A stretch of 64,000 nucleotides of DNA, from the NCBI RefSeq assembly GCF_002854065.1, contig NZ_CP024147.1; one strand, given 5' to 3'. Position numbers and translations under genes: made by a program. Below the pieces are notes generated by a model that made no database searches, was not told where the DNA came from, and saw only the letters and a list, made by a program, of their open reading frames with translations. This DNA is from Escherichia coli. GTDB lineage: Bacteria > Pseudomonadota > Gammaproteobacteria > Enterobacterales > Enterobacteriaceae. Of this stretch, positions 1 through 10,058 are shown one piece after another (the first letter of the stretch is position 1; the number at the start of each line of letters is the position of its first letter).

Positions 1-1028
1 GTTTCCACCGTTTTTTCCATCTTCAGTATCAGCGAAGTGATAGCAAAGGACACCAGGGTACCTACCGTAACACCGGCAATTGTCGCCAGGAACGAACCTT
101 TCGGCGTCAGCGCCAGGTAAGCAAAGATAGACCCCGGACTTGGGCCAGCCACCAGACCACCGTCCAGTAAGTTAAACATCCAGGTGCCAGACATACCGCC
201 CGCAATCATGGCAATAATAGTCAGCGGCTTCATCAGCACATATGGGAAATACAGTTCGTGGATGCCACCGAGGAAGTGAATAATCATCGCCCCGGGCGCA
301 GAACGTTTACTCATCCCTTTACCAAACAAGGTAAACGCCAGCAGCAGCCCCAGGCCCGGACCTGGGTTAGAGGCCACCATAAAGAAGATGGATTTACCGT
401 TAACCGAAGCCTGTTGCATTCCCAGCGGATAATAGACGCCCTGATCGATCGCATTATTAAGGAAAAGCACTTTCGCCGGTTCATTGATGACTGACAGCAG
501 AGGCAGATAACCCGCATGTACCAGCGCCTCAATACACTCTTTGACGAAAGTATTGGCAATTAACACCGCCGGGCCGATCACTTCAAAACCCAGCAGACAA
601 AGGAGCATCCCCGCGATACCTAATGAGAAGTTATTGATAACCATCTCAAAACCGGCAGGTATGCGTTTTTCCAGTGCCTTATCAACATATTTTATGACCA
701 GACCACCGAGCGGCCCCATAATCATTGAGCCAAGGAACATCGGGATCTCTGCGCCGACGATCACACCAATAGTACCTATTCCGCCCATGACCGCGCCGCG
801 TTTACCGCCGACCAGATGACCACCGGTAGAACCAATCATCACGGGCAATAAATAGGTAATCATCGGGCCGACAATTTTGGCGAAATGTTCGTTAGGCAGC
901 CAACCGGTGGGAATAAATAACGCAGTAATAAAACCCCAGGCAATAAAAGCACCAATATTGGGGATGACCATTGCAGTCAAAAAGCCCCCAAAAGCCTGGA
1001 CCTTTGCACGAGCAGACTTGTTTTCCAT
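1..1028 (-). CDS. cmtA: PTS mannitol-type EIICB component CmtA, 5' part (gene runs off the window start)
   Basis: Minus-strand ORF starting at the ATG at 1026-1028 (MENKSARAKVQAFGG...); membrane IIC-like sequence recognised from K-12 CmtA; position upstream of tktA matches K-12. Confidence 0.8.
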   Translation of the reverse strand, partial: MENKSARAKVQAFGGFLTAMVIPNIGAFIAWGFITALFIPTGWLPNEHFAKIVGPMITYLLPVMIGSTGGHLVGGKRGAVMGGIGTIGVIVGAEIPMFLGSMIMGPLGGLVIKYVDKALEKRIPAGFEMVINNFSLGIAGMLLCLLGFEVIGPAVLIANTFVKECIEALVHAGYLPLLSVINEPAKVLFLNNAIDQGVYYPLGMQQASVNGKSIFFMVASNPGPGLGLLLAFTLFGKGMSKRSAPGAMIIHFLGGIHELYFPYVLMKPLTIIAMIAGGMSGTWMFNLLDGGLVAGPSPGSIFAYLALTPKGSFLATIAGVTVGTLVSFAITSLILKMEKTVE

Positions 1029-1055
1029 AATATTATCCTGTAGAGGAGAGAGTAA

Positions 1056-1499
1056 TTATCCGCGGCTGATAATGTCCGCTAATTGTTTTTCTGATGATGC
1101 TGTTAAGAGTTGTTCGAGTATTTCTTCTTCGCACAGTAATTCACTTAACGCCTGAATAGCGCCAATGTGCGAATCGGCATCGGCAGCAGAGAGTCCGATG
1201 AGTAATTTAATTGGTTCGTCATTCCCCGGAAAATAAACACCTTGTTCAAGTAATGTCAAAGACATCCCGGTTTTAAGCGCCCCACATTCCGGTCGCGCAT
1301 GAGGCATTGCCACGCCTGGTGCGAGAATATAATAAGGGCCATTGTTGATGGTGGAATCTTTAATAGCCTGAATGTAATTCTCGCTGATATAGTTTTTATC
1401 CAGCAATGATGCCATCGAGAAATCGATAGCTTCCTGCCAATCTTTTGCTGAATGTATAACTGAGATTGATGATTCTGGAAAATAATCACTAAGCCGCAT
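1056..1499 (-). CDS. cmtB: PTS mannitol-type EIIA component CmtB
   Basis: 147-aa ORF, same length and context as K-12 CmtB; EIIA-like sequence. Confidence 0.8.
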   Translation of the reverse strand: MRLSDYFPESSISVIHSAKDWQEAIDFSMASLLDKNYISENYIQAIKDSTINNGPYYILAPGVAMPHARPECGALKTGMSLTLLEQGVYFPGNDEPIKLLIGLSAADADSHIGAIQALSELLCEEEILEQLLTASSEKQLADIISRG

Positions 1500-1555
1500 A
1501 AATTATCCTTATTTTATTTTTAGGGTGCCGTCCGGCGGTAAAAATAAAATACTCG

Positions 1556-2323
1556 GGTAATGACTCCAACTTATTGATAGTGTTTTATGTTCAGATAATG
1601 CCCGATGACTTTGTCATGCAGCTCCACCGATTTTGAGAACGACAGCGACTTCCGTCCCAGCCGTGCCAGGTGCTGCCTCAGATTCAGGTTATGCCGCTCA
1701 ATTCGCTGCGTATATCGCTTGCTGATTACGTGCAGCTTTCCCTTCAGGCGGGATTCATACAGCGGCCAGCCATCCGTCATCCATATCACCACGTCAAAGG
1801 GTGACAGCAGGCTCATAAGACGCCCCAGCGTCGCCATAGTGCGTTCACCGAATACGTGCGCAACAACCGTCTTCCGGAGACTGTCATACGCGTAAAACAG
1901 CCAGCGCTGGCGCGATTTAGCCCCGACATAGCCCCACTGTTCGTCCATTTCCGCGCAGACGATGACGTCACTGCCCGGCTGTATGCGCGAGGTTACCGAC
2001 TGCGGCCTGAGTTTTTTAAGTGACGTAAAATCGTGTTGAGGCCAACGCCCATAATGCGGGCAGTTGCCCGGCATCCAACGCCATTCATGGCCATATCAAT
2101 GATTTTCTGGTGCGTACCGGGTTGAGAAGCGGTGTAAGTGAACTGCAGTTGCCATGTTTTACGGCAGTGAGAGCAGAGATAGCGCTGATGTCCGGCGGTG
2201 CTTTTGCCGTTACGCACCACCCCGTCAGTAGCTGAACAGGAGGGACAGCTGATAGAAACAGAAGCCACTGGAGCACCTCAAAAACACCATCATACACTAA
2301 ATCAGTAAGTTGGCAGCATCACC
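1556..2323 (-). mobile_element. insAB: IS1 copy 1 (768 bp; insA 1993-2268, insB 1571-2074 on minus strand), variant isoform
   Basis: Terminal inverted repeats GGTAATGACTCC...GCAGCATCACC; InsA/InsB ORFs; perfect 9-bp direct target duplication AAATACTCG at 1547-1555 and 2324-2332. Several residues differ from copies 2 and 3. Confidence 0.95.
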
Positions 2324-2653
2324 AAATACTCGTGCGGTTTAATGAAAGCAATTGGGTACGCGAGAAGAAAAACCCCATAAACCAAAATAATAAAACCTTA
2401 AATAACAACAATATGAAATTGATATCTTTAAAGTCAACTTTGTGTTTGTTATGTTTATCACAAAATCAACATTTTGTTTGTTATTGTATTTGTGATGCAT
2501 ATCTCTATTTATTTATTGAATGTTCGAAAACATACTTTTCTAATGCAATGTTTTTTCGCTATACCCCTTTATAGAATCTGAATTCTCACCTGTCGGCTGT
2601 TTTCTCCTCATCTCATGTGACATATTCCCACACTTTACTCAAGGAAGATTGTC

Positions 2654-3562
2654 ATGAAAGCACCTGTTTCATTAACCTCATTTCGCCCACAAAAATCTCT
2701 TGCTATCGCCATCGGCGTGCTTGCCGTGGTTGTGCTGCCATTTCTCTCGTATTACACCGTTAATGAAGGTGAACGCGGCATTTTGCTGCGCTACGGAAAA
2801 ATCGTAAAAGTTGCCGAGCCGGGTCTGGGTTTTAAGATCCCGTTTATGGAAAGCGTGGAGAAAATTTCCACGCGTAATCAGGCTGTGGTCTATCAGGGAT
2901 TACAGGCCTACAGCCGCGACCAGCAACCGGCACAAATGACAGTATCAGTCAGCTTCCACATTAAACCTTCAGAAGCAGGCGCGGTTTATACCACCTACAA
3001 CACCATTGAAGCATTAAAAGATCGTCTGATTGTCCGTCAGTTGCCAACTCAACTGGAGAACGTTTTCGGCCAATATACCGCCATCAGCGCTGTACAGGAT
3101 CGTACAAAACTGGTTCAGGATCTGCAAAATGCCATGCGCAAAGCCGTTGTTGGGCCAGTGGTAATTGACGGGGTCCAGATTGAAAATATTGATTTTTCTG
3201 ACGCTTATGAAAAGTCGATTGAAGACCGAATGAAAGCAGAAGTCGCCATTGCCACGCGTAAGCAAAATCTGGAAACAGAGAAAATCCAGGCGCAAATAGC
3301 GGTAACTCAGGCCCAGGCAGAAGCAGACAGTAAACTGGCGGCAGCCAAAGCAGAAGCGGAAACTATTCGCGTAAGAGGCGCGGCAGAGGCTGAAACTATT
3401 CGTTTAAAAAGTGCGGCTGAAGCAGAAGCAATCCGCCTGCGCGGTGAAGCTCTGCGGGATAATCCCGGACTTGTAGCCCTCACCACTGCCGAACGTTGGG
3501 ACGGTAAACTGCCCGATACCATGATCCCCGGCAGCACAGTTCCGTTTATCTCTACTAAGTAA
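2654..3562 (+). CDS. SPFH/band-7 (flotillin-like) membrane protein with C-terminal Ala/Glu-rich 11-aa tandem repeats
   Basis: 302-aa ORF with N-terminal hydrophobic anchor, SPFH-like core and three repeats AEAETIRVRGA/AEAETIRLKSA/AEAEAIRLRGE; AT-rich upstream region 2330-2650; no K-12 gene at this position as far as I recall. Confidence 0.7.
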   Translation: MKAPVSLTSFRPQKSLAIAIGVLAVVVLPFLSYYTVNEGERGILLRYGKIVKVAEPGLGFKIPFMESVEKISTRNQAVVYQGLQAYSRDQQPAQMTVSVSFHIKPSEAGAVYTTYNTIEALKDRLIVRQLPTQLENVFGQYTAISAVQDRTKLVQDLQNAMRKAVVGPVVIDGVQIENIDFSDAYEKSIEDRMKAEVAIATRKQNLETEKIQAQIAVTQAQAEADSKLAAAKAEAETIRVRGAAEAETIRLKSAAEAEAIRLRGEALRDNPGLVALTTAERWDGKLPDTMIPGSTVPFISTK

Positions 3563-3564
3563 AA

Positions 3565-3590
3565 AAAGGGCCGCTTTCGCGGCCCTTGAG
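3565..3590. terminator. Stem-loop terminator downstream of the SPFH gene
   Basis: GGGCCGC-TTTC-GCGGCCC perfect hairpin preceded by an A-run; the same 22-bp sequence recurs at 3741-3762. Confidence 0.6.
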
Positions 3591-3594
3591 AGTG

Positions 3595-3735
<141 letters not shown>

Positions 3736-3738
3736 TCT

Positions 3739-3765
3739 AAAGGGCCGCTTTCGCGGCCCTTCTCA
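3739..3765. terminator. Stem-loop terminator downstream of tktA (second copy of the 22-bp hairpin)
   Basis: Identical GGGCCGCTTTCGCGGCCC hairpin immediately 3' of the tktA stop on the minus strand. Confidence 0.6.
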
Positions 3766-3781
3766 CAAAACGTCTTACTGA

Positions 3782-5773
3782 TTACAGCAGCGCTTTTGCT
3801 TTCGCAACAACGTTATCAACAGTGAAGCCGAACTCTTCAAACAGCAGCTCTGCCGGAGCAGATTCACCGAAGGTGGTCATACCGACGATAGCACCGTTCA
3901 GGCCAACATACTTGTACCAGTAGTCAGCAATACCCGCTTCTACCGCAACGCGTGCAGTAACCGCTTTCGGCAGTACGGATTCACGGTAAGCCGCATCCTG
4001 CTTGTCGAATGCATCGGTAGACGGCATGGAAACCACGCGCGCCTTCACGCCTTCGGCAGTCAGTTTTTCGTAGGCGGCAACAGCCAGTTCAACTTCCGAA
4101 CCGGTCGCGATGAAGATCAGTTCCGGCTGACCGGCACAGTCTTTCAGCACATAACCACCGCGCGCGATGTTTGCCAGCTGCTCTTCAGTACGCTCCTGCT
4201 GCGCCAGGTTCTGACGGGAGAGGATAAGCGCGGTCGGGCCGTCCTGACGCTCAACACCGTATTTCCATGCCACTGCAGATTCAACCTGGTCACATGGACG
4301 CCATGTAGACATGTTCGGGGTCACGCGCAGAGAAGCAACCTGCTCTACCGGCTGGTGAGTCGGGCCATCTTCGCCCAGACCGATGGAGTCGTGGGTGTAA
4401 ACCATCACCTGACGCTGTTTCATCAGCGCAGCCATACGTACGGCATTACGTGCGTATTCTACGAACATCAGGAAGGTGGAGGTGTACGGCAGGAAGCCAC
4501 CGTGCAGGGAGATACCGTTAGCAATCGCGGTCATACCGAACTCGCGAACACCGTAGTGGATGTAGTTACCCGCAGCATCTTCGTTGATTGCTTTAGAACC
4601 AGACCACAGGGTCAGGTTAGACGGTGCCAGGTCAGCGGAGCCGCCGAGGAATTCCGGCAACAGCGGACCGAACGCTTCGATAGCATTCTGCGACGCTTTA
4701 CGGCTGGCGATTTTCGCCGGATTAGCCTGCAGTTTAGCAATGAACTCTTTCGCTTTCGCGTCGAAGTCAGACGGCATTTCACCTTTCATACGACGGGTGA
4801 ATTCAGCCGCTTCCTGCGGGAAGGCTTTGGCGTAAGCCGCGAATTTCTCATTCCAGGCAGCTTCTTTCGCCTGGCCTGCTTCTTTCGCATCCCACTGCGC
4901 ATAGATTTCAGACGGGATTTCGAACGGTGCGTATTTCCAGCCCAGCTGTTCGCGGGTCAGAGCGATTTCTGCATCACCCAGCGGCGCACCGTGGGAGTCG
5001 TGAGTACCGGCTTTGTTCGGGGAACCGAAACCGATGATGGTTTTGCACATCAGCAGGGACGGTTTGTCAGTCACTGCGCGCGCTTCTTCTACTGCGCGTT
5101 TGATGGATGCTGCGTCATGACCGTCGATGTCGCGAATAACGTGCCAGCCGTAAGCTTCGAAACGCATTGCGGTGTCGTCGGTGAACCAGCCTTCAACGTG
5201 ACCATCAATAGAGATACCGTTGTCATCGTAGAACGCAATCAGTTTACCCAGCTTCAGCGTACCCGCCAGAGAGCAAACTTCGTGGGAGATGCCTTCCATC
5301 ATGCAGCCGTCGCCCATGAAGGCGTAGGTGTAGTGATCGACAATGTCGTGGCCCGGACGGTTAAACTGCGCCGCCAGCGTTTTTTCTGCAATCGCCATAC
5401 CTACTGCGTTGGCAATACCCTGCCCCAGCGGACCGGTGGTGGTTTCCACACCAGCGGTGTAACCCACTTCCGGGTGGCCCGGAGTTTTAGAGTGCAGCTG
5501 ACGGAAGTTTTTCAGTTCTTCCATCGGCAGATCGTAACCGGTGAGGTGCAGCAGGCTGTAGATCAGCATGGAGCCGTGGCCGTTGGACAGCACGAAGCGG
5601 TCACGGTCAGCCCAGGACGGATTCTGCGGGTTGTGTTTCAGGAAATCACGCCACAGGACTTCGGCAATGTCAGCCATACCCATAGGGGCACCCGGGTGAC
5701 CGGATTTGGCTTTCTGTACTGCGTCCATGCTCAGCGCACGAATAGCATTGGCAAGCTCTTTACGTGAGGACAT
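3782..5773 (-). CDS. tktA: Transketolase 1
   Basis: 663-aa ORF from [28 protein letters not shown]; thiamine-diphosphate enzyme sequence recognised as K-12 TktA. Confidence 0.95.
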
Positions 5774-6050
5774 TTTGACTCCAGATCGGATGATGAAGGG
5801 CACGCCCTTAACGACTTGACGACAGCGCGTTTTGGGCTACGCCGGAAAATTTGCCAACAATTTACCGCAAGCCGCGCGTCATGTACATGGAACATCCTTT
5901 TGCCGCTTCAGAAATCTCTGGATCATGCTCGCATGTTGCGCAATCTACTCGCCCGTCCGCTGCGCTTTTCCTTATACTGAGACTGAGCGTCGGTTCACCT
6001 GCAAACGGCGCATTTTTAGAATAATCCTGACCTTGTGCGGAAGAAAAAAC

Positions 6051-6809
6051 ATGAAAATTCGCGCCTTATTGGTAGCAATGAGCGTGGCAACGGTACTGAC
6101 TGGTTGCCAGAATATGGACTCCAACGGACTGCTCTCATCAGGAGCGGAAGCTTTTCAGGCTTACAGTTTGAGTGATGCTCAGGTGAAAACCCTGAGCGAT
6201 CAGGCATGTCAGGAGATGGACAGCAAGGCGACGATTGCGCCAGCCAATAGCGAATACGCTAAACGTCTGACAACCATTGCCAACGCGCTAGGCAACAATA
6301 TCAACGGTCAGCCAGTGAATTACAAAGTGTATATGGCGAAGGATGTGAACGCCTTTGCGATGGCTAACGGCTGTATCCGCGTCTATAGCGGGCTGATGGA
6401 TATGATGACGGATAACGAAGTCGAAGCGGTGATCGGTCACGAAATGGGGCACGTGGCGTTAGGCCATGTGAAGAAAGGGATGCAGGTGGCACTTGGTACA
6501 AATGCCGTGCGAGTCGCGGCGGCCTCTGCGGGCGGTATCGTCGGCAGTTTATCGCAATCACAGCTTGGTGATCTGGGCGAGAAATTAGTCAATTCGCAAT
6601 TCTCCCAGCGCCAGGAAGCAGAGGCGGATGATTACTCCTACGATTTACTGCGCCAACGCGGCATCAGTCCGGCAGGTCTTGCCACCAGCTTTGAAAAACT
6701 GGCAAAACTGGAAGAAGGTCGCCAAAGCTCAATGTTTGACGACCATCCAGCATCCGCCGAACGCGCCCAGCATATTCGCGATCGTATGAGCGCGGACGGG
6801 ATTAAGTAA
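6051..6809 (+). CDS. loiP: Periplasmic metalloprotease LoiP (YggG), lipoprotein
   Basis: 252-aa ORF from MKIRALLVAMSVATVLTGC with HEMGH zinc motif; ATG at 6051; the track ORF is an upstream extension. Confidence 0.9.
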   Translation: MKIRALLVAMSVATVLTGCQNMDSNGLLSSGAEAFQAYSLSDAQVKTLSDQACQEMDSKATIAPANSEYAKRLTTIANALGNNINGQPVNYKVYMAKDVNAFAMANGCIRVYSGLMDMMTDNEVEAVIGHEMGHVALGHVKKGMQVALGTNAVRVAAASAGGIVGSLSQSQLGDLGEKLVNSQFSQRQEAEADDYSYDLLRQRGISPAGLATSFEKLAKLEEGRQSSMFDDHPASAERAQHIRDRMSADGIK

Positions 6810-7125
6810 GGCATGGTGGTGCCAAACGTAGTTCAGATAAGGCATTTACGCCGCATCTGACATAAATGGCACATTCACTACCTCGTGCGCATTGCCGGAT
6901 GCGATGCTGGCGCATCTTATCCGGCCTACGGGTGCCAAACGTAGGTCAGATAAGGCGTTCACCCCGCATCTGACATGAATGGCACATTTGTTACCTTGTG
7001 CGCATTGCCGGATGCGATGCTGGCGCATCTTATCCGGCCTACGGGTGCCGAACGTAGGTCGGATAAGGCGTTCACGCTGCATCCGACATTAATGGCACGT
7101 TTTACCCGTGCGCATCGCATCTGGT
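6810..7125. repeat. Three tandem REP/BIME units
   Basis: About 100-bp unit (GTGCCAAACGTAGGTCAGATAAGGCG...CCGCATCTGACA...GCGCATTGCCGGATGCGATGCTGGCGCATCTTATCCGGCCTAC) repeated three times between loiP and speB. Confidence 0.8.
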
Positions 7126-7127
7126 GC

Positions 7128-8048
7128 TTACTCGCCCTTTTTCGCCGCCTGAATATACAGCATTTCCAGCGCCAGCGTTGCCGCTGCCAGAGCGGTGATT
7201 TCCGACTGATCGTATGCCGGAGCCACTTCCACTACGTCCATCCCAACGATGTTGAGATCTTTCAGGCCGCGTACCAGTTTAATAGCGCGATCGGAGGTCA
7301 GACCGCCAATTACCGGCGTACCGGTTCCCGGCGCAAATGCAGGATCCAGGCAGTCGATATCAAAGGTCAGGTAAACCGGCATATCACCCACAATTTGTTT
7401 CACCTGGGCGATAACGTCATCCACGCTGCGATCGTTCACCTGGCAGGCGTCCAGCACGGTAAAGCCGTTGTCTTTATCAAATTCGGTACGAATACCAATC
7501 TGCACGGAATGATTCGGATCGATCAGACCTTCTTTCGGCGCGGTATAGAACATGGTGCCGTGGTCAAATTCACAACCGTTCGCGTAGGTATCGGTGTGGG
7601 CGTCAAAGTGTACCAGCGCCATTTTGCCGAAATGCTTCGCATGAGCACGCAGCAGCGGCAGCGTAACAAAGTGGTCACCACCGAAGGAGAGCATACGCTT
7701 ACCGGCAGCCAGCAGCTTCTCGGCGTGTGCCTGCAGTTTTTCGCTCATCTCACGGGCATCGCCGAAGGCATATACCAGATCGCCGCAGTCCACCACGTTC
7801 AGACGCTCGCGCATGTCGAAATTCCACGGGAAGCGGTTGTGTTCCCAGGCCAGGTTAGTCGAAACCTGGCGAATCGCCGCCGGGCCATGACGACCACCGG
7901 CACGGCCAGAGGTGGCCATGTCGAACGGCACGCCGGTGATCACCCAGTCGGCATCGCTGTCATACGGCTGGAAGTTCATCGGCAGGCGTAAAAAACCAAA
8001 GGCGTTGGAAACCAGTGAGTTATCGTATTGATGACCTAAGGTGCTCAT
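7128..8048 (-). CDS. speB: Agmatinase
   Basis: 306-aa ORF, arginase-fold sequence recognised as K-12 SpeB. Confidence 0.95.
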
Positions 8049-8183
8049 GGATGGACTCCTATTACAAAGTCGATATAAAAAAACCCTTCCGCGTCGTTAG
8101 GCCCGACGAGGAAGGGTTGGATTTGCGAAACACAAGTTTGTGCTAATTATCGCCTTAAATGGGCGAGGCATCAAGCGAGGTTG

Positions 8184-8650
8184 CTATTTCCGACACGGTG
8201 GCGGCGCATAGCCATTGTTATCTGCCGGAAAGGCTTGTCCAGAGCACGGCGGCAGCGCGTTTTGCGCCTGGCCTTGTAATTCAAAGGCGGCAAAGCCGAT
8301 TACACCGGTATTACGCACATCGCCTTGCGCCGAATTGGCTGCGTAGGAATCAGCAACGTTGGCGAACTGAAAAGCCGCTTCGGTATGTTTATCTTTGCGG
8401 AATCCTTTAATCGCTAACGAATCTCCGGCATTCACAATATAGCCGTTGTTATTCAGCGAACCTTGCTTGCCGTTCAGCACATCCAGGCCATCAACCGTAG
8501 CAACGATCTCGTAGTTGGTGTTACGACTGTAATTACGAACATATAATTGATAATTCATTCCGACTCTGGCGTGGACAATATAGCGTGGTTCATTATTGGA
8601 TGAATCATAAACACGCGTAATAGGTAGAGAATTAAAATTACCATCGCGAA
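8184..8650 (-). pseudogene. 3' portion of an IS1-disrupted lipoprotein gene; its 5' portion is at 44235-44508
   Basis: Minus-strand reading frame is open right up to the IS1 end at 8651; joining rc(8184-8650) to 44235-44508 across the 9-bp duplication is in-frame and restores a 245-aa lipoprotein. Confidence 0.8.
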
Positions 8651-9418
8651 GGTAATGACTCCAACTTATTGATAGTGTTTTATGTTCAGATAATGCCCGA
8701 TGACTTTGTCATGCAGCTCCACCGATTTTGAGAACGACAGCGACTTCCGTCCCAGCCGTGCCAGGTGCTGCCTCAGATTCAGGTTATGCCGCTCAATTCG
8801 CTGCGTATATCGCTTGCTGATTACGTGCAGCTTTCCCTTCAGGCGGGATTCATACAGCGGCCAGCCATCCGTCATCCATATCACCACGTCAAAGGGTGAC
8901 AGCAGGCTCATAAGACGCCCCAGCGTCGCCATAGTGCGTTCACCGAATACGTGCGCAACAACCGTCTTCCGGAGCCTGTCATACGCGTAAAACAGCCAGC
9001 GCTGGCGCGATTTAGCCCCGACGTATCCCCACTGTTCGTCCATTTCCGCGCAGACGATGACGTCACTGCCCGGCTGTATGCGCGAGGTTACCGACTGCGG
9101 CCTGAGTTTTTTAAATGGCGGAAAATCGTGTTGAGGCCAACGCCCATAATGCGGGCGGTTGCCCGGCATCCAACGCCATTCATGGCCATATCAATGATTT
9201 TCTGGTGCGTACCGGGTTGAGAAGCGGTGTAAGTGAACTGCAGTTGCCATGTTTTACGGCAGTGAGAGCAGAGATAGCGCTGATGTCCGGCAGTGCTTTT
9301 GCCGTTACGCACCACCCCGTCAGTAGCTGAACAGGAGGGACAGCTGATAGAAACAGAAGCCACTGGAGCACCTCAAAAACACCATCATACACTAAATCAG
9401 TAAGTTGGCAGCATCACC
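8651..9418 (-). mobile_element. insAB: IS1 copy 2 (insA 9088-9363, insB 8666-9169); left end of the inversion
   Basis: 768-bp IS1 with IRs; ORF translations identical to copy 3; outer flank CATCGCGAA (8642-8650) is the reverse complement of the 9 bp preceding copy 3 (44500-44508). Confidence 0.95.
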
Positions 9419-10058
9419 CTCATGGGGTTATACATCAGCCGGGATTTCAAAAGCCTTCGGTGATGATAAATATCAACAGCAGTATTTATCACAGCGCAGC
9501 GGGTTTGCTATAGGTGAGGATGGTTTTGCATGGGGCCGCATGGACTATGATTCCGCGCTAATTGTCGATGCTACGGATTTGCCCGAAGATCAGTATTTCG
9601 AGGTGCGTAATCGTAATTCGGCACCAACGATTGTAAAAGGTGGTCAGAAAACAACGCTTTCTATGGAGCCGTATCGTAAGGTCGCACCAGAAGCTGAACA
9701 ACTCTACAGCAATAATATGGATGCTTATTACAATCTGAAAACGGAGTCTACTTCTACCTGGGCGAAACCAGGGCAAGTTTATAAAGTTAAACTTTCCGCA
9801 ACCCGGAATCTGACCGTCACCGGACGCCTTTATTTTGACGGTCAACCGTTGATTAACGCCAGGGTCGTTGGTGGGAATGCAATGGCAGATACTGATGGCT
9901 TATTTGTTGGTGATTTTACACTCCAGACAAATGAACAACTTAAATCTGTGAAAGTTAAACAAGACGGGCGTGATTTCATCTGTCCACTGCTGGATGAAAA
10001 TATCAAACTTGCGCAGGGTATTATGCAAATTCGTGAGGTTAATTGTGAAGTTCAATAA
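9419..10058 (+). pseudogene. C-terminal fragment of a fimbrial usher, 5' part removed at the IS1 junction
   Basis: No start codon; frame open from the IS1 boundary; ends with a Cys...Cys tail (CPLLDENIKLAQGIMQIREVNCEVQ) typical of usher C-termini; sits directly upstream of a CS1-type chaperone gene. Confidence 0.5.

Follow-up and report, generated by a model that had tools for sequence, protein, structure and literature searches.

IS1 is a 768-bp element that makes duplications of 8-9 bp at its target, and four isoform types are recognized in K-12 (PMC12428005). Type I (IS1A and IS1E) is regarded as the 'consensus', while type II (IS1B and IS1C) has nine mismatches to type I; both types make target duplications of 8-9 bp (PMC12428005). 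The role of the A6C motif in IS1 was described in the same work, in which the IS1A isoform was reported as the main active type and IS1B/C of K-12 as almost inactive (PMC12428005). Inversion of DNA by intramolecular replicative transposition 'in trans' was described for IS26 and Tn4401 (PMC4471558). Citing Turlan and Chandler 1995, that paper also states that IS1-family elements transpose replicatively (PMC4471558); replicative deletions made by IS1 are credited to Turlan and Chandler 1995.

We analyzed a stretch of 64,000 nucleotides of Escherichia coli DNA, here called the window, which carries three IS1 copies, at 1556-2323, 8651-9418 and 44509-45276. The copy at 1556 is almost certainly an intact, canonical IS1A-type IS1 that transposed into the AT-rich divergent spacer between cmtB and an SPFH gene, independently of the pair of IS1B-type copies. 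The event is probably recent and specific to this lineage. The features of this site are as follows.

1056-1499, minus strand: cmtB (PTS EIIA; PTS_EIIA_2), with IS1 in its upstream region, 56 bp from ATG to IRR
1547-1555, no strand: left 9-bp target-site duplication AAATACTCG, single in empty sites
1556-2323, minus strand: complete IS1A-type IS1, 768 bp, assigned from sequence, isoform comparison and domain matches
1556-1578, minus strand: IRR terminal inverted repeat, on the cmtB side, with the ATG of that gene (1499) 56 bp away
1571-2074, minus strand: insB' frame, an ORF of 167 aa, expressed in vivo only as the InsAB' fusion
1993-2268, minus strand: insA ORF, repressor, 91 aa
2011-2017, minus strand: A6C (-1) programmed frameshift motif AAAAAAC, intact, read from the sequence
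2301-2323, minus strand: IRL terminal inverted repeat, overlapped by a promoter-like site (2316->2289)
2324-2332, no strand: right 9-bp target-site duplication AAATACTCG, a perfect match to the left copy
2654-3562, plus strand: SPFH/Band_7 'prohibitin family' gene, start 330 bp from IRL, with IS1 upstream

The first-pass annotation had placed an IS1 at 1556-2323, and we could read both ends of the 768-bp element directly from the sequence. At 1556 the element reads GGTAATGACTCCAACTTATTGAT (IRR) and at 2323 it closes with the reverse complement of GGTGATGCTGCCAACTTACTGAT (IRL), which places it on the minus strand. Its length, and the imperfect inverted repeats of about 23 bp at its termini (GGTGATGCTGCCAACTTACTGAT / GGTAATGACTCCAACTTATTGAT), are those of IS1. 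Also the coding organization agrees, with overlapping insA and insB' ORFs and the A6C motif for the -1 frameshift that gives InsAB'. When this frameshift was made in silico, the InsAB' product of the 1556 copy had 232 aa and contained the zinc ribbon of InsA, the HTH and the DDE_Tnp_IS1 domains. The scores were 69.9 bits for Zn_ribbon_InsA (PF03811), 98.4 bits for HTH_Tnp_IS1 (PF12759), 259.4 bits for DDE_Tnp_IS1 (PF03400) and 243.2 bits for the NCBIfam IS1 transposase equivalog NF033558, all four far above the curated cut-offs. In a promoter scan, a promoter-like site (2316->2289) overlapped the IRL, which is the known position of the insA promoter. Together with the 9-bp direct duplication of a target that is single in the unoccupied site, within the 8-9 bp of IS1, the element shows every defining feature of IS1 that can be checked in silico.

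The perfect 9-bp direct repeat noted beside the element at first pass, AAATACTCG at 1547-1555 and 2324-2332, was identical on re-reading. By chance, nine of nine bases would agree at two given positions with a probability of about 4e-6. We then looked at genomes in which the site is unoccupied. In E. coli Z1322HEC0005 the empty site reads ...GGTAAAAATAAAATACTCGTGCGGTTTAATG..., with the 9-mer present once, and the 9-mer is also present once at the empty site of the near-isogenic E. coli CUWW06 (NZ_CP182139.1). Window positions 1-1555 align with CUWW06 L027 2893-4447 with 0 mismatches over 1,555 bp, and positions 2324-8650 align with L027 4439-10765 with 3 mismatches over 6,327 bp, so that the two flank alignments overlap by exactly 9 bp (L027 4439-4447). 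Since the 9-mer is single in the unoccupied CUWW06 site, the 1556 copy arrived by simple transposition. The earlier reading of a simple insertion with an intact target duplication was thus borne out by the unoccupied sites of both strains, and among the anatomy, the flanks and the empty-site comparisons we found no evidence against it. By analogy with established IS1 biology, InsAB' would have been made by -1 frameshifting at the A6C motif, would have bound the inverted repeats, cut AAATACTCG with a 9-bp stagger and joined the ends of the element to the target; subsequent repair would then have duplicated the 9-mer.

The neighbors of the element are, as first annotated, cmtB (PTS_EIIA_2) and an accessory gene, the latter encoding a Band_7/SPFH 'prohibitin family' protein. 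The SPFH gene is absent from K-12 and widespread in E. coli. The spacer between the two genes is divergent, has a length of 377 bp and is 31% GC, compared with 51% for the whole window. IS1 is known to prefer AT-rich targets, and the composition of the spacer fits this preference.

We searched 5,426 complete E. coli genomes for the exact junction of the 1556 copy and found it in none of them. Exact matches to the SPFH protein, the truncated lipoprotein ORF and CmtB were present on many E. coli contigs, and again the junction was on none of these. Because the junction query by its design finds only one orientation of IS1, the junction with the opposite orientation was also built and searched. 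IS1 within tens to hundreds of bp of the site was found in 7 genomes in the same orientation and in 5 genomes in the opposite one. These nearby insertions were independent ones, of IS1A, IS1B or divergent IS1, and occupied differing positions. In WCHEC050613, for instance, IS1 lies 22 bp away from the 1556 site, and in FDAARGOS_448 another nearby IS1 has its own duplication, GGGAAACCG. In some of the other genomes IS1 was present inside cmtA or cmtB, and elsewhere IS1 was accompanied by loss of cmtAB.

These data bear on whether the insertion allele could have been imported by homologous recombination or transduction from a strain that already carried it. E. coli recombines frequently, and IS1 is present in the same intergenic region in about 12 other genomes, so occupied alleles do circulate. 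However, the exact junction occurred in 0 of the 5,426 complete genomes, and the flanks are 100% and 99.95% identical to those of CUWW06, whose site is empty, with no trace of an imported tract. As the flanks match an empty-site relative and the junction is found in no other genome, we regard import as highly improbable and local transposition as the explanation of choice.

We also considered whether the insertion is adaptive, with the cryptic cmtBA PTS operon or the SPFH gene either switched on, as bgl is by IS1 and IS5, or silenced. The element lies 56 bp upstream of the cmtB ATG and is transcribed towards cmtB, and the sole consensus-like promoter that faces cmtB (2437->2408) is now beyond the element. 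IS1 insertions near the site recur in other genomes, and IS1 is credited with creating promoters in the part of PMC9330008 that cites Prentki 1986. On the other hand, promoter-like sites in our scans were no commoner than in shuffled sequence. A putative hybrid outward promoter at the IRR end (TTGGAG, 17 nt, TATTTT) was rejected, as its -35 matches 3 of 6 positions and the scan made no call. The recurrent insertions were found in both orientations (7 vs 5), and many of them may be clonal. With a mean IS1 density of about 2.2e-6 per bp per genome, and with a junction search that joins pieces across about 560 bp, a uniform distribution predicts approximately 3 genomes per orientation, and the observed 7 and 5 are within about two-fold of it. 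Since the counts are near random expectation and show no orientation bias, they give no evidence of selection, for example for activation of cryptic cmt, and both an insertion hotspot and selection for cmt activation were rejected. An adaptive regulatory insertion is thus unlikely, and we found no support for it beyond the position of the element. That the insertion acts on cmtBA or the SPFH gene, be it by polarity or by activation, would be speculation.

The three IS1 copies of the window were compared base by base. No difference was found between the copies at 8651-9418 and 44509-45276; from both of them the 1556 copy differs at 8 of 768 nucleotides (IS coordinates 127, 262, 298, 301, 304, 393, 396 and 444). 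The first-pass annotation had reported differences in the InsA and InsB translations, and these do exist: InsA of the 1556 copy is 1 residue apart from that of the other two (L81F) and the annotated InsB ORFs of the two types are 5 residues apart. Of the five InsB-ORF differences, four precede the frameshift site, in a part of that frame which stays untranslated, and the actual transposase InsAB' differs between the types by only 2 residues (L81F and S130R).

The isoform comparison covered the reference copies IS1A and IS1B/C of K-12 MG1655, to the exclusion of IS1D and IS1F. The 1556 copy has 1 mismatch to K-12 IS1A (767/768) and 9 mismatches to K-12 IS1B/C; by near identity it belongs, among these references, to the IS1A isoform. 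The copies at 8651 and 44509 are of the IS1B type, 1 nt from K-12 IS1B/C (767/768). Exact matches (100%) to the 1556 copy were found on many E. coli chromosomes and plasmids, labelled 'IS1A family' by PGAP, and exact matches (100%) to the type at 8651 and 44509 were likewise found on many E. coli chromosomes and plasmids, labelled 'IS1B family'.

The 1556 copy shares with K-12 IS1A and IS1E (type I) the length of 768 bp, the same IRL and IRR ends, the same A6C motif and a target duplication of 9 bp, and in InsA and InsAB' the protein sequences agree at every residue. The sequence of the 1556 copy is intact. Unlike K-12 IS1A, which has A at IS position 262, the 1556 copy has T, and both proteins are unchanged by this difference. 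The location also differs, as the window copy lies in the cmtB-SPFH spacer and the K-12 copies lie in nhaR-rpsT or yrhA. From IS1B and IS1C of K-12 (type II) the 1556 copy is 8-9 nt apart. The designation 'variant IS1' given at first pass therefore holds relative to the two neighboring copies only; overall the element is of the canonical IS1A or 'consensus' type, and on its sequence it ranks as the most canonical form of IS1. What was right in that description is that the 1556 copy is a separate isoform and a separate event, being of IS1A type beside an IS1B-type pair and having its own 9-bp duplication. We are thus dealing with a known element of a known isoform with typical behavior, which is already known, textbook IS1. 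Its significance lies mainly in the annotation of the source strain, and the region as a whole is a record of IS1 having been active recently in a natural lineage of E. coli.

The copies at 1556 and 8651 are both on the minus strand, in direct orientation as noted before, and the bracketed segment, first given as about 6.3 kb, is exactly 6,327 bp long. All of the genes listed in it at first pass were found there.

2324-8650, no strand: interval between directly repeated IS1, containing the SPFH gene, tktA, loiP, speB and the C-terminal part of a lipoprotein gene

The longest stretch over which the two copies agree without a break is 324 bp, which is ample for RecA-dependent recombination. Arrangements of the Tn9 or argF type are known to be deleted, amplified or mobilised. 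As in Tn9 and in the IS1B-argF-IS1C segment of K-12, a direct IS1 pair brackets several kb (6.3 kb here and 10.7 kb at argF), and from this architecture deletion or amplification of the 2324-8650 interval seems plausible, although future recombination of the 1556 copy with the 8651 copy is speculative. Given the direct IS1 repeats, tktA, loiP and speB together with the SPFH gene would form a plausible unit of deletion or amplification. Knowledge of likely rearrangement sites of this kind is of practical use, as are the assembly checking and strain typing for which the insertion may serve.

Such an architecture could also mean that the 1556 and 8651 copies are the arms of a Tn9-like composite transposon, which moved as a unit with the SPFH gene, tktA, loiP and speB. 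The copies are indeed direct repeats, and the outer ends are one IRR (1556) and one IRL (9418), as in Tn9 and the argF segment. Nevertheless, K-12 and CUWW06 have a backbone collinear with the interior and with the outer flank on either side, and on this synteny the composite reading was rejected. Moreover, the 1556 copy is flanked by a 9-bp duplication of its own, the sequences at the outer ends do not match (AAATACTCG vs CTCATGGGG) and the arms are different isoforms. In Tn9-like transposons one would look for a shared outer duplication and a foreign passenger; unlike Tn9 and the argF segment, the pair in the window has two arms which arrived separately and a passenger which is native backbone. 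We consider the probability of a composite transposon here to be practically nil, and the 1556 copy is best read as a simple insertion, separate in origin from the IS1B-type copy at 8651.

Two side observations concern this interval. Repeated extragenic palindromes resembling REP/BIME are present at 3599-3711 and 6818-7120. Those at 3599-3711, downstream of the SPFH gene, match at 91% an inverted K-12 sequence near fbaA, and those at 6818-7120 form a partly duplicated block between loiP and speB.

The 8651 copy has a different history. It is not a simple insertion and forms one end of a 35-kb inversion, the other end of which is the copy at 44509. The features of this rearrangement are as follows.

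8642-8650, no strand: inversion target 9-mer CATCGCGAA, one of two inverted occurrences
8651-9418, minus strand: IS1B-type copy without its own target duplication, left inversion boundary, assigned from its flanks and the CUWW06 comparison
9419-44508, no strand: inverted segment of 35,090 bp, with the pheV-island remnant, pheV through speA and the N-terminal part of the lipoprotein gene
44500-44508, no strand: inversion target 9-mer TTCGCGATG, reverse complement of 8642-8650
44509-45276, plus strand: IS1B-type copy identical to the 8651 copy, right inversion boundary, assigned from its flanks and the CUWW06 comparison

Reading from IRL to IRR, the 8651 copy is flanked as CCCCATGAG / IS / TTCGCGATG and the 44509 copy as TTCGCGATG / IS / CACGCAAAG. 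No direct target duplication was seen at either copy when the flanks were read. Instead, a single 9-mer stands beside each copy, and the two 9-mers are mutually inverted on the chromosome (CATCGCGAA / TTCGCGATG). Compared with K-12, window positions 17473-44089 run backwards, from pheV to speA, and compared with CUWW06, positions 9419-44509 correspond to L027 45846->10756, reversed, with 6 mismatches in 35 kb. The segment 9419-44508 is thus inverted relative to both K-12 and CUWW06. GC skew is +0.036 inside this segment and -0.020 and -0.049 in its flanks.

We rejoined the junction in silico by linking positions 8050-8650 to the reverse complement of 44000-44499, with one copy of the 9-mer dropped. 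This restored a continuous lipoprotein ORF of 243 aa. The rejoined sequence of 1,101 nt was 100% identical, in one piece, to CUWW06, and 3,543 of the 5,426 complete E. coli genomes contained it at a coverage of at least 80%. K-12 lacks this lipoprotein gene, which about two thirds of E. coli genomes carry and whose usual place is between speB and speA; the 243-aa protein matched no Pfam family. In the window the inversion has split it into a C-terminal piece at 8184-8650 (minus strand) and an N-terminal piece at 44235-44508 (plus strand). Through the inversion speA and speB have also become separated, and 35 kb now have the opposite orientation with respect to replication.

One of the two copies at 8651 and 44509 gave rise to the other in this IS1-mediated inversion. 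As in the in-trans inversions of IS26 and Tn4401, the two IS copies are identical and inverted, the DNA enclosed by them is inverted too, each copy has beside it a single target 9-mer, mutually inverted, and a gene is split at the target. Either of two routes may have left this signature: intramolecular replicative transposition in trans, or RecA-dependent homologous recombination after a simple insertion, which could give the same end product. In difference from a plain in-trans inversion, the inner junction at 9418/9419 needs an additional adjacent deletion of 1,887 bp. In the window, 1,887 bp of the usher gene (CUWW06 L027 45847-47733) are missing next to the IRL of the 8651 copy, and the loss is an IS1-adjacent deletion at 9418/9419. 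The presumed donor IS1B in CUWW06 lies beside the intact usher gene and is already without a duplication. In the window, the remnant of this fimbrial usher (TcfC-like) is ORF 9405-10058, in which the C-terminal 217 codons alone are left.

CUWW06 and strain 100416, both ordinary E. coli, were the closest relatives that we found. CUWW06 carries an extra IS1B at L027 48847-49614 with the duplication GCTCTTCAG, and window positions 45613-45621 are the empty counterpart of this site. The extra copy interrupts a winged-helix regulator gene, of which the window has an uninterrupted version (ORF 45464-46069, minus strand). Together, the window and CUWW06 differ by four IS1 events against approximately 9 substitutions in 43 kb (about 2 per 10 kb). 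On the side of the window these are one simple insertion of IS1A, one IS1B-bounded inversion of 35 kb and one IS1-adjacent deletion. All of these are outcomes that IS1 is well known to produce. A Shigella origin, considered in view of the three IS1 copies in 64 kb, is not required, since many E. coli genomes have at least 40 copies and the closest relatives are ordinary E. coli.

At least two events duplicated IS1B-type copies between the window and CUWW06, namely the one that produced the inversion-associated copy and the one that produced the GCTCTTCAG copy of CUWW06. The extra copy in CUWW06 and the inversion copy in the window indicate that IS1B-type copies have been multiplying in both sister lineages, and evidently they multiplied recently in this lineage. 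The window IS1B-type sequence differs from that of K-12 IS1B/C by one base, nt 704, as a result of which InsAB' has Leu217, shared with IS1A, rather than the Gln217 of K-12 IS1B/C. Tentatively, the IS1B-type isoform of this lineage may itself be active in transposition, the difference possibly being Leu217 instead of Gln in InsAB', though we hold this to be rather doubtful. The alternative is that IS1A-type copies, for example the one at 1556, supply transposase in trans for the IS1B-type copies. If Leu217 did account for the activity, the contrast between a type II IS1 that is dead in K-12 and yet abundant in wild E. coli would come down to one residue.

Several further observations were made inside and around the inverted segment. 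A decayed type VI secretion cluster at 12824-17123 adjoins the tRNA-Phe gene pheV (about 17484-17559, minus strand). The remnant consists, in order, of a frameshifted tssB, tssC, tssK and the ORF 16146-17123, in which an N-terminal part of DotU is fused to a C-terminal part of JetD (Wadjet). The same type VI/pheV arrangement is present in CUWW06, where it is annotated as pseudogenes. Strain 100416 has a different IS1B-bounded arrangement at the T6SS/pheV region, with a Flp pilus cluster.
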